Source: Betaproteobacteria bacterium (lineage in GTDB: Bacteria; Pseudomonadota; Gammaproteobacteria; Burkholderiales; SG8-39). From it: a stretch of DNA of 64,000 nt. Below are positions 26,028-28,747 of this stretch, in pieces. The position numbers were made by a program, and so were the translations under genes. The first letter of the stretch is position 1, and each line of letters starts with the position of its first letter. The DNA lies in assembly GCA_004297625.1 (NCBI GenBank), contig SCTY01000004.1:2697-66696 (forward strand), given 5' to 3'. A model generated the notes under the pieces. The model was not told the origin of the DNA, ran no database searches, and saw nothing but the letters and a program-made list of their open reading frames with translations.

Positions 26028-26246
26028 ATGAGCCAATGCCCCGTGATGACCACCGCGGCCGGAGTACCGGTGGCGGATAACCGGAATTCCCTCACCGCCG
26101 GGCCTCGCGGCCCGGTGCTGACGGACTATCAACTGATGGAGAAGATGGCGCATTTCAACCGCGAGCGCGTGCCCGAGCGCGTGGTGCATGCCAAGGGCGG
26201 GGGCGCTCACGGCACCTTCACGGTAACCGGCGACACCTTCAGGTAG
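26028..26246 (+). pseudogene. N-terminal 72-codon fragment of a monofunctional haem catalase
   Basis: [60 protein letters not shown] matches the conserved catalase N-terminus, then stops at an AT-rich junction. Confidence 0.85.
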
Positions 26247-26288
26247 TGAGATTGAATAATGAATTGCAAACAACCAGAGGAGAGAACC

Positions 26289-28484
26289 ATGTCAACCGAA
26301 AGGAAGTGCCCATTCTCGGGCGACGCTCGCACAAACACAGTGGCTGGAGCCCCATCGAACGCAGACTGGTGGCCCAGTCAACTGAAACTGAACATCTTGC
26401 ACCAGCACTCCTCCAAGTCCGACCCCATGGGCGAGGGGTTCAACTACGCCGAGGAGTTCAAGAGCCTCGACCTGAATGCCGTCGCCAAGGATCTCCATGC
26501 CTTGATGACGGATTCACAGGACTGGTGGCCGGCGGACTTCGGCCACTACGGACCTTTGTTCATTCGCATGGCATGGCACAGCGCTGGCACGTACCGCACC
26601 GGCGACGGTCGCGGCGGCGCAGGGAGTGGCAACCAGCGCTTTGCTCCCCTGAACAGCTGGCCGGACAACGTCAACCTCGACAAGGCGCGCAGGCTCCTTT
26701 GGCCGATCAAGCAGAAGTATGGCCGGAAAATTTCATGGGCCGACCTCATGATCCTCGCTGGCAACGTTGCTCTGGAATCGATGGGATTCAAGACGTTCGG
26801 TTTCGCTGGCGGGCGTGAGGACATCTGGGAACCAGAAGAAGACATCTACTGGGGCTCTGAAAACACCTGGCTGGGTGACAAACGCTACTCCGGCGACCGG
26901 GATCTCGAAAATCCGCTCGCTGCCGTGCAGATGGGTCTGATTTACGTCAATCCGGAAGGCCCGAACGGCAACCCGGATCCGATCGCTGCGGCGCGGGATA
27001 TCCGCGAGACCTTCGCTCGCATGGCGATGAACGACGAAGAGACGGTGGCGCTCATCGCGGGCGGGCACACCTTCGGCAAAACCCACGGCGCCGGCGATGC
27101 GAAACATGTGGGGCCCGAGCCCGAAGCCGCCACCATCGAGGAGCAGGGCCTGGGCTGGAAGAGCAGCTTTGGCACCGGCAAGAGTGGTGACACGATCACC
27201 AGCGGCCTGGAAGTCACCTGGACCAGCACGCCGACGAAGTGGAGCAATAACTTCTTCTGGAACCTGTTCGGCTACGAATGGGAGCTGACGAAGAGCCCGG
27301 CCGGTGCGCACCAGTGGAAGCCGAAGGGTGGCGCGGGCGCCAGTACGGTGCCGGATGCCCACGACCCGTCGAAGCGTCACTCGCCGGCCATGCTGACCAC
27401 CGACCTCGCGTTGCGGTTCGACCCTGTCTACGAAAAAATTTCGAGGCGCTTCTATGAGAATCCGGATCAGTTCGCGGACGCATTCGCCCGGGCGTGGTTC
27501 AAGCTGACGCACCGCGATATGGGCCCCCTGTCGCGTTATCTTGGCCCGCTCGTTCCCAAGGAGCAACTGCTGTGGCAGGACCCCATTCCCGCAGTGGATC
27601 ACAAATTGATCGACGAGCAGGACATTGCCTCCCTGAAAGGCAAGATCCTCGCATCTGGCCTTTCCATCTCCCAGCTGGTCACCACGGCCTGGGCGTCTGC
27701 AGCAACGTTCCGCGGCAGCGACAAACGCGGTGGAACGAACGGCGCGCGTATTCGCCTGGCGCCGCAGAAGAATTGGGAAGTCAACCAGCCGGCTGAACTG
27801 GCGCGGGTCCTGCAGAAGCTGGAAGCGATCCAGAAGGGCTTCAACAGCGCACAGTCTGGCGGCAAGAAGGTTTCGCTTGCCGACCTGATCGTTCTGGGCG
27901 GCTGCGCGGGCGTCGAAGCAGCTGCGAAGAAGGCCGGCCACGACGTGAAGGTTCCCTTCTCGCCGGGGCGCATGGATGCGTCGCAGGAGCAGACCGATGT
28001 GGACTCGTTCGCTGTACTGGAACCGACCGCAGACGGGTTCCGCAACTACGTCCGTAAGGGACTCGAGGGATCGTCGGCTGAGCTGCTGGTGGACAAAGCG
28101 CAGTTGATGACGCTGACCGCCCCTGAGATGACGGTTCTGATCGGCGGCCTGCGCGCCCTGAATGCGAACCTCGGCCAGTCTAAACACGGTGTTCTTACCA
28201 AGCGACCCGAAACATTGACCAATGATTTCTTCGTGAATCTCCTCGACATGAAGACGAAGTGGCAGAAGTCCGCCACATCCGAAGGCGTGTTGGAGGGGCA
28301 CGATCGGGCGACGGGCGAGCTCAAGTGGACGGGTACCATCGTTGATCTCGTCTTCGGTTCGAACTCCCAGCTCCGGGCTCTCGCGGAAGTCTATGCGTGC
28401 AGCGACTCGCAGCAGGCGTTCGTGCGTGATTTTGTGGCGGCCTGGAACAAGGTGATGAACCTTGATCGCTACGACCTTGCGTGA
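26289..28484 (+). CDS. katG: bifunctional catalase-peroxidase KatG
   Basis: MSTERKCPF..., [35 protein letters not shown], and a two-lobed length of 731 aa. I chose ATG 26289 because GGAGAG lies upstream. Confidence 0.95.
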
Positions 28485-28594
28485 TTTCAGAGGAAAGGTC
28501 CAAAAGATCCTATGCCGCCCAGCCGCGACCTGGCAGCGGGGTATGTCCGGCCAAGTCGAGGGCGAACGAACCCTGCAGAGCGCGGACGGCTGAT

Positions 28595-28747
28595 CGCCAT
28601 CTCGCCGGCGCGATGAAAGACGTGCCACGCGAAATCCATTTGCGCCAGATCGCGCACTTCCGCCACGCCGATCCGGAGTACGGTGCGGGCGTCGCGGCGG
28701 CCCTCGGCAGCAAGATGGCCGAGGCGCCCGGCATCAAGGCGGCATAG
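28595..28747 (+). pseudogene. C-terminal fragment of the same type of monofunctional catalase
   Basis: LAGAMKDVPREIHLRQIAHFRHADPEYGAGVAAALG matches the catalase C-terminal (immune-responsive) segment, cf. P. aeruginosa KatA ..QQRQIDLFTKVHPEYGAGVEKAI. Confidence 0.75.

Follow-up and report, generated by a model that had tools for sequence, protein, structure and literature searches.

Order and identity of the features at the locus

The locus analysed here lies at positions 26028 to 28747 of a stretch of 64,000 nucleotides from a Betaproteobacteria bacterium (contig SCTY01000004.1), the whole of which is called the window below. It carries katG, the gene of a catalase-peroxidase, between the first and the last codons of a gene for a monofunctional heme catalase, next to a divergent oxyR gene. 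The original prediction, made from the letters of the window, was that katG had replaced the middle of the catalase gene in situ. The features are as follows:

24987..25898, minus strand: oxyR, coding for a probable peroxide sensor of the LysR family (Pfam domains HTH_1 and LysR_substrate), divergent from cat-N
25899..26027, no strand: putative control region shared by oxyR and the catalase gene, with OxyR-box-like repeats, a -10-like element and a ribosome-binding site
26028..26246, plus strand: cat-N, the catalase N-terminal remnant, a 72-codon open reading frame (ORF) in which codons 1 to about 70 are catalase and the stop is TAG at 26244-26246
26237..26288, plus strand: junction, the remnant of the native promoter and leader of katG, AT-rich and ending in the ribosome-binding site GAGGAGAGAACC
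26289..28484, plus strand: katG, intact, coding for a catalase-peroxidase of 731 residues (NCBIfam, Pfam and alignment with Burkholderia pseudomallei KatG)
28485..28577, plus strand: truncated 3' untranslated region (UTR) of katG, about 93 nt, homologous to those of loci L081 and L087 and of the non-composite locus L102
28578..28747, plus strand: catalase C-terminal remnant, residues ~426-483 (the last ~56 codons), with the original stop TAG at 28745-28747

The product of cat-N matched positions 1-64 of the Pfam Catalase profile PF00199 (E 4.7e-24) and aligned with residues ~5-70 of solved small-subunit clade-3 catalases (E 1e-22), including those of Proteus, Enterococcus and Helicobacter and KatA of P. 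aeruginosa; its identity with an intact Azospirillum catalase was 75% over residues 4-68 of the latter. The distal-His motif of monofunctional heme catalases is present in this N-terminal arm. The catalase-derived part stops at about 26236 (..TFTVTGD(T)), the final codons TFR* being junction sequence, and signs of relaxed constraint are visible in it: DNRNS in place of the DNQNS, or something close to it, of all listed relatives; GGGAHG; and the loss of one codon (VLT-DYQ).

The piece downstream of katG, which belongs to the helical C-terminal part of catalases, matched positions 30-65 of Pfam Catalase-rel PF06628 (E 2.5e-9) and aligned with residues 440-480 of P. aeruginosa KatA (4e37) and 432-482 of the Azospirillum catalase. 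Comparison with L081 9640-9720 showed that catalase homology at the DNA level begins at ~28578, and a 1-nt deletion near 28600 can be read from it. A search of a set of 5.8 billion proteins with the C-terminal remnant returned only the fragment itself, which fits drift. Intact catalases of the same clade beside a divergent oxyR-like gene, such as that of Azospirillum, were 62-75% identical to the fragments. As predicted, both fragments compare with the same clade-3 monofunctional catalase, and the alignments support the view that they are the remains of one such gene, in the correct order and on the correct strand around a complete katG. What is absent, with katG sitting in between, is residues ~69 to 425/431, i.e. 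about 360 codons. The window holds no uninterrupted catalase ORF of ~480 residues with the beta-barrel and the proximal-Tyr heme ligand region, and the catalase gene reads as a pseudogene.

The prediction of a complete katG also stood. Its product is a full-length protein of two domains (PF00141 twice). Residues 1-731 aligned end to end with B. pseudomallei KatG (1284 bits) and scored 1212.7 bits with NCBIfam TIGR00198 (cut-off 770) and 1346.8 bits with NF011635 (cut-off 981). B. pseudomallei KatG has the same residues in the alignment at the distal Arg-Trp-His, at the proximal His and in the Met-Tyr-Trp adduct. The true start is ATG 26289 and not ATG 26259, the leader and the ribosome-binding site in front of it being common to other katG genes. 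A 15-nt purine-rich direct repeat was also seen, directly before the katG start (26275-26289, CAGAGGAGAGAACCA) and directly after the katG stop (28488-28502, CAGAGGAAAGGTCCA); the two copies are 80% identical and may have arisen by chance or go back to the ribosome-binding site of a gene that once stood downstream.

The window is of metagenomic origin, and its read depth spikes inside katG, where conserved stretches attract the reads of other organisms; a chimeric assembly joining catalase and katG contigs could in principle produce such a locus. Unitigs of the groundwater metagenome run X1 nevertheless span both junctions (26172-26543 and 28433-29100) at ~33x, which is the depth of the flanks, and therefore the arrangement is not an assembly chimera. 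Since other studies yielded over 15 independently assembled contigs with this architecture, we consider an artefact hardly conceivable.

The composite family and the point of insertion

A protein search with the N-terminal fragment brought up many catalase stubs of ~71 residues, ending in ..GTFTVT(R/G)(V/A/M)S* and situated on long contigs. The contexts of these stubs and a scan with the junction sequence yielded upwards of 15 independent loci in which cat-N, junction and katG follow one another, usually with an OxyR-like LysR gene divergent upstream. These composite loci are L081-84/L178, L085, L087/L173 (from a Gallionella metagenome-assembled genome, MAG), L168-L172, L174-L185 and L147; the cat-N/katG composite family referred to below is defined from L081, L087 and L168-L185. 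Its members share the junction sequence TAAGATCGGTACTCGGACTCCAAATCGGACCGAGTCGTTGGATTCAAACTGTCAAAGGAG.AACAC (at 6214-6279 in both L081 and L087, and in L168-L185), which the window does not have. An almost identical junction is joined to eight or more types of catalase N-terminus, with tails as different as MNKCP.., MNHPTAAAWKL.., MAKKKEDTL.., MSTKKPL.., MSDRPP.. and MTDKRQR... The window segment 26027-28577 aligned as one contiguous block with L081 (75%) and L087 (79%), and the nearest relatives of its cat-N (83-85% nucleotide identity) are L184 and L185, both composites with the hairpin type of junction described below.

The composite is rare in reference genomes and recurrent in metagenomes from soil, sediment and groundwater. 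Among the 80 katG loci that came back as best matches from data holding one genome per species, the trace of a catalase stub was found only in L147 (an Acetobacteraceae MAG), and the scan of species genomes with the family junction gave a single match, in a Gallionella MAG. A plasmid collection contained no composite; there cat-N matched only intact catalases, up to query position ~206. Searches of the literature brought up no account of a katG inside a catalase gene. The original prediction had proposed to look for relatives with the intact catalase at this locus: an oxyR-like LysR gene divergent from an intact catalase gene, which is presumed to be the ancestral state, does exist elsewhere (Azospirillum sp. 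TSH58 plasmid p04, L079, L033, L045). The idea of a one-off insertion could not be maintained. Nor is the locus the clean example of displacement that it had been called, since it belongs to a family found in many metagenomes and its junction and katG appear to have been remodelled by later recombination.

Two oddities of the family may be mentioned. At L169 (466-638) the composite katG ends after 25 codons, and another katG start, different from the first and preceded by a leader of its own, comes next (MTEQSKCPFNHTAGGGTSNRD..); this looks like a second layer of displacement, on a contig that is short. A dps/ferritin-like gene follows the catalase remainder, or katG directly, at L081 (10083-10577), L087 (9576-10058) and L176 (~8000); catalase-(small ORF)-dps is the probable order in the ancestral operon.

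The sequence of events can be read from L081 and L087. L081 keeps catalase residues 70-483 downstream of katG, with a single 2-nt deletion that causes one frameshift; in L087 residues 70-156, with a stop and radical substitutions, are fused to residues 444-483. The right junction is common to the two loci, including a 15-nt filler before ..AAATAC (KY, Lys-Tyr), which points to the same insertion in both. As the catalase resumes almost exactly where its left part ends, katG was inserted between codons ~70 and ~71 and did not replace a segment. The earlier figure of some 400 codons replaced by a cassette has to be revised in this sense: about 360 codons are missing, and L081 and L087 show insertion after codon ~70 followed by deletion.

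Other members have gone further. In L175, L183, L176 and L181 the remainder of the catalase is wholly lost, with differing deletion end-points; the window stands late in this series, its deletion starting within the 3' UTR of katG and reaching residue ~425 of the catalase. The left part decays too, through an in-frame stop in L183, deletions in L174 and a frameshift in the L176 group; L181 keeps only the last eight codons of cat-N, and that of L147 is decayed. In L087 a palindromic element of ~240 bp (8583-8820), resembling a miniature inverted-repeat transposable element, with 30-nt terminal inverted repeats (TCATGTGGGCACCTCTAAAAATCC..), sits exactly at the end of the katG 3' UTR.

Nature of the insert and spread of the composite

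The junction of the window is AT-rich, as had been noted (~38% G+C versus 64% for the window). Its ~50 nt are collinear with the upstream regions of the flank-free katG genes L100, L102, L089, L088 and L158, from about their -35/-10 region on, with 97% identity over 34 nt in the case of L102; it is two ~8-nt blocks shorter than these collinear sequences. The family junction has 75 nt and contains a hairpin, ACTCGGACTCC-AAATC-GGACCGAGT, which the window lacks; the inverted repeat in the family junction reads ACTCGG..CCGAGT. Although non-coding, this junction shows 92-100% identity between loci in which the coding sequences beside it differ by synonymous divergences (dS) of 0.3-1, and is thus conserved more than the adjoining genes. 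The folding scores do not support the hairpin as a strong RNA structure (z = -0.2 in L081; -0.45 for the window junction). The ends of cat-N are ..TFTVTGD(T) in the window and ..TFTVT(R/G)(V/A/M)S in the family, so that the catalase breakpoints agree within ~3 codons, and both katG-side breakpoints fall in the former -35/-10 region. Such agreement of both breakpoints argues for a common origin; it is very unlikely for independent events that are not site-specific.

On the other side of katG, the likeness to ordinary katG genes extends through a 3' UTR (window 28485-28577; L081 8455-8585; L102 7197-7300) which forms two hairpins in the relatives, one of them with a 14-bp stem. The window copy is 76% identical over 107 nt to those of L081 and L087. 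Four compensatory pairs between composite and non-composite katG loci support the consensus structure; the L081 copy folds with z = -4.3, whereas that of the window, truncated and degraded, gives z = 0.14. Rfam gave no match to the 3' UTR, and the stem is not followed directly by a U-tract. With both flanks collinear with those of the five flank-free genes named above, the insert is best described, from these alignments, as a katG transcription unit truncated within its own promoter, with a leader of ~60-75 nt and a 3' UTR of ~130 nt. Among the ORFs of the insert there is only katG and no transposase, integrase or reverse transcriptase, no dedicated search for integrases having been made.

The presence of one junction behind many types of cat-N, broken at the same codon, might also be produced by a mobile katG element that targets the ..GTFTVT.. 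site, the window being a separate event; the window junction, which is unlike the hairpin type and resembles ordinary katG leaders, and the window katG, which is nearest to non-composite alleles, would suit this explanation. The contents and the ends of the insert do not: it holds only katG and its UTRs, none of the three mobility genes just named, no terminal inverted repeats and no clear target duplication, and it has no Rfam intron or RNA match. Moreover, among the 80 katG loci that came back as best matches from species genomes only L147 shows a catalase trace beside katG; other truncated catalase N-fragments ending near the site are plain frameshift splits; and, as described below, a recombination breakpoint between two members lies inside cat-N and not at the junction, as homologous recombination predicts and transposition does not. 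We regard an independent or site-specific insertion as improbable.

Several particular forms of mobile element were examined and set aside. No terminal inverted or direct repeats were found at the boundaries in the window or in L087. The 7-nt sequence TCATAAG occurs at both ends in L081 and is inconsistent across loci, and the 15-nt filler of the L081/L087 right junction resembles the catalase target weakly (~5/12), so that no duplication is claimed. In an integron cassette the GTTRRRY core of the attC stem-loop makes up the 3' boundary; L081 does have a 14-bp stem ending in GTTGAGC, but ~45 nt of conserved sequence separate this stem from the resumption of the catalase. For a group I or II intron or another structured RNA there was no Rfam match in 25800-29200 at E<=1, and ~360 codons of the 'exon' are missing. 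Recurrent insertion of other elements at the same catalase site was rejected as well: in P0103, P0020 and P0108, N-fragments ending near ..FTVT, the remaining catalase lies directly downstream. More generally, many short 'catalase' proteins of the large protein collection are N-terminal pieces of frameshift-split genes (L186 5001-6310, L188 1304-2745, L189 3167-4624), several of them on long-read contigs; whether assembly indels or genuine pseudogenes, they have nothing to do with the katG insertion. The founding event was probably an illegitimate recombination.

How the composite reached so many backgrounds is best seen in pairs of loci. L168 and L175 are ~97% identical from about codon 10 of cat-N through katG and unrelated upstream of it; the breakpoint being inside cat-N, the crossover took place within catalase coding sequence. 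L175 and L176 have a common upstream context and different katG alleles. Between L087 and L175, dS is 0.27 for katG and 0.94 for cat-N; the cat-N estimates are noisy (61 codons). Between lineages, changes in cat-N are mostly synonymous (dN/dS 0.06-0.2, dS 0.45-1.9). In the closest pair, L168/L175, dN/dS is 0.83, and terminal variants of cat-N have changes at invariant catalase residues (Arg or Tyr for the catalytic His; HATG for HAKG), as expected for drift after capture. The simplest reading of these sequences is that the module was repeatedly recombined into different catalase 5' ends, its catalase-derived flanks serving as homology. The mosaics show recombination; the recipients, which we infer to have been intact resident catalases, may have been such genes (a true knock-in) or earlier composites.

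A single ancient insertion inherited only vertically, with the catalase pieces drifting and neither horizontal spread nor recombination, would account for the left and right junctions common to L081 and L087. It meets with several difficulties: drift over a katG dS of 0.3-1.1 would have randomised cat-N, which instead shows a dN/dS of ~0.1 and the conservation typical of catalases; cat-N and katG give incongruent relationships, and the breakpoint between L168 and L175 is sharp; Gallionella and Acetobacteraceae are both among the hosts, and the genomic contexts are unrelated; and the remainder in L081 is almost intact although the family is old. Strict vertical descent is thus very improbable.

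The low dN/dS of cat-N would also be explained if the stub were kept because it is useful, be it as a leader ORF acting against Rho-dependent polarity, through translational coupling to katG, or as a functional peptide. Most lineages, the window among them, have its ORF intact, and its dN/dS matches the low value of katG; the conservation of the junction beside its stop codon is extreme; and in L087 it has about 3 changes in 67 codons, against numerous radical changes plus a stop in the remnant downstream. On the other hand, several lineages in which katG persists have cat-N disrupted or lost (L183, L174, the L176 group, L181, L147), and both the ratio of 0.83 in the closest pair and the hits on invariant residues go against a preserved function. 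Selection for an open frame alone would not conserve amino acids, and an N-terminal arm of 70 residues is unlikely to fold alone. Such a use of cat-N seems unlikely.

The katG of the window is itself a mosaic: from 26536 to 27070 it is nearest to composite alleles (L175, 96%), from 27430 to 28480 to the non-composite alleles L088 and L089 (90-94%), and the 3' UTR is again nearest to composites. We count the window in the family and take it that later recombination with alleles of ordinary katG genes, together with small deletions from the leader, remodelled it.

Our preferred interpretation, to which we give a probability of roughly 0.75, is that katG was inserted in a catalase gene beside oxyR and that stepwise loss of the catalase and spread of the composite by recombination followed. 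A number of observations weigh against it, besides the noise in the dS of cat-N. Taken whole, the katG of the window is closer to flank-free katG genes (L088 90%, L089 86%) than to those of composites (75-81%). Its ~50-nt junction cannot be aligned unambiguously with the hairpin type, so that common origin rests on the coincidence of breakpoints. Only L081 and L087 retain the right-hand catalase arm, and therefore knock-in into intact catalases is something that we infer and did not catch in the act. The cat-N of L087 is less decayed than the downstream remnant, a contrast that could reflect some selection on cat-N. Finally, a simple sigma-70 scan found no canonical promoter upstream of cat-N or of katG.

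The history proposed under this interpretation would start with oxyR divergent from a clade-3 catalase gene. A katG, together with a now degenerate promoter and leader (~60-75 nt) and a structured 3' UTR of ~130 nt, would have arrived between catalase codons ~70 and ~71, splitting the catalase and placing katG behind an OxyR-type catalase promoter. The composite would then have spread and been reshuffled among bacteria by homologous recombination, with the catalase flanks and katG as homology, while the useless downstream catalase decayed by frameshifts and deletions. In the lineage of the window, a deletion from the katG 3' UTR to residue ~425 would have removed ~360 codons, the junction would have lost two ~8-nt blocks including the family hairpin, and an allele of the L088/L089 kind would have replaced the 3' two-thirds of katG.

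Control of katG, known systems and significance

The divergent regulator is probably an OxyR, as the original prediction had it. The top NCBIfam match of its product is the OxyR equivalog (256 bits, below the cut-off of 329), its top PDB matches are all OxyR (best, P. aeruginosa OxyR 4x6g, E 2e-66), and both redox cysteines (E. coli C199/C208) are present in the motif GHCMREQALDIC, which aligns with the C199 region of P. aeruginosa OxyR. The region between oxyR and cat-N contains OxyR-box-like repeats (~25919-25962, pattern ATAG-N7-CCAT-N7-ATTG), a -10-like TCCAAT (25971-25976) and the ribosome-binding site AGGAG (~26016); the functions of these elements are putative. The repeats and the -10-like element keep their positions across the family. 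A block ..AACAATCCATTGGATC.AT.. with a NNNAAT element ~25 nt downstream is conserved upstream of cat-N in L185, L184, L172, L168, L081 and L087. The remnant of the native katG promoter in the junction is degenerate, with no canonical promoter detected there. The most likely arrangement is that katG is transcribed from the OxyR-type catalase promoter with cat-N as a leader ORF: OxyR activated by H2O2 would drive one transcript starting ~45 nt upstream of cat-N, cat-N would be translated as the leader, and katG from its own ribosome-binding site 42 nt after the cat-N stop. None of the RNA runs holds more than 6% of the words of the window junction.

As for the neighbourhood, genes for a mercuric reductase (merA, 19617-21218) and an IS256-family transposase (33184-34452) flank the locus at distances of no more than 7 kb, which suggests an accessory region prone to gene transfer. 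Genes for an extracytoplasmic function (ECF) sigma factor and an NrsF-type anti-sigma factor stand just downstream of the catalase remnant (29156-30366, minus strand) and that of a second ECF sigma factor upstream of oxyR (23873-24382, minus strand). In a synteny comparison with the closest katG genes, none of the neighbouring genes of the window occurred in L001-L167, and there is no dps downstream of the locus.

The locus can be set beside several known situations. It is known that catalase and katG genes at large undergo horizontal transfer (PMC3523812). The order, the orientation and the catalase clade are those of the oxyR/intact catalase loci of Azospirillum sp. TSH58 p04 (LysR WP_109072339 and catalase WP_109072338) and Falsochrobactrum ovis (L079), where the catalase is uninterrupted and there is no katG.

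OxyR-regulated katG(-dps) operons occur in proteobacteria, e.g. katG-dpsA of Burkholderia pseudomallei, and oxyR is divergent from katG also at L015, L072 and L075-L077. Like these, the window has katG beside a divergent oxyR, and the composites L081, L087 and L176 have dps downstream; catalase remnants are absent from such operons, and dps from the window.

A segment that interrupts a gene at a defined point and has a stem-loop near its 3' end recalls insertion sequences, integron cassettes and group I/II introns; unlike them, it lacks transposase, integrase, reverse transcriptase, terminal repeats, an attC-type boundary and an intron RNA signature. Cassette exchange via flanking homology is closer. 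It is exemplified by pneumococcal capsule switching between dexB and aliA and by homology-facilitated illegitimate recombination, and shares with the composite a foreign insert moved by crossovers in conserved flanks, with breakpoints inside these flanks (L168 versus L175). The difference is that here the arms are the halves of one gene destroyed by the event, and the cargo is its functional analogue.

The concept of in-situ non-orthologous (analogous) gene displacement reportedly goes back to Koonin, Mushegian and Bork in 1996. The present case agrees with it in that an unrelated enzyme with an overlapping function, the removal of H2O2, takes the place and probably the regulation of the original gene; it differs in that both ends of the displaced gene flank the displacer, intermediates survive, and the remains apparently serve as recombination arms. 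Taken alone, the window would be an ordinary pseudogene-plus-replacement locus. Less ordinary is the family, with its intermediates, its nearly invariant junction and the signs that the halves of the catalase mediate spread.

One may go further and see in cat-N, junction, katG, 3' UTR and catalase remainder a natural 'knock-in cassette', its cargo framed by the halves of the gene that it replaces, which after horizontal transfer would integrate by homology into any resident catalase gene that is similar enough; the near-invariant 75-nt junction, better conserved than the synonymous sites beside it, would be a functional regulatory element that travels along. This is a tentative proposal, and we lean somewhat against it; if it were true, an OxyR-controlled catalase locus would become an OxyR-controlled katG locus in one step.

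At a practical level, annotators should beware that ORFs of ~71 codons labelled 'catalase' beside katG are pseudogene stubs and no sign of catalase capacity. Analogous displacement is usually inferred from phylogenetic patterns, whereas here physical intermediates, an insertion point known within a few nucleotides and a graded decay are available, together with evidence that the remains of the displaced gene may act as homology arms which move the displacer between genomes. To conclude, the composite family offers a testable route by which soil and groundwater bacteria may swap peroxide-detoxifying enzymes and keep the OxyR wiring.

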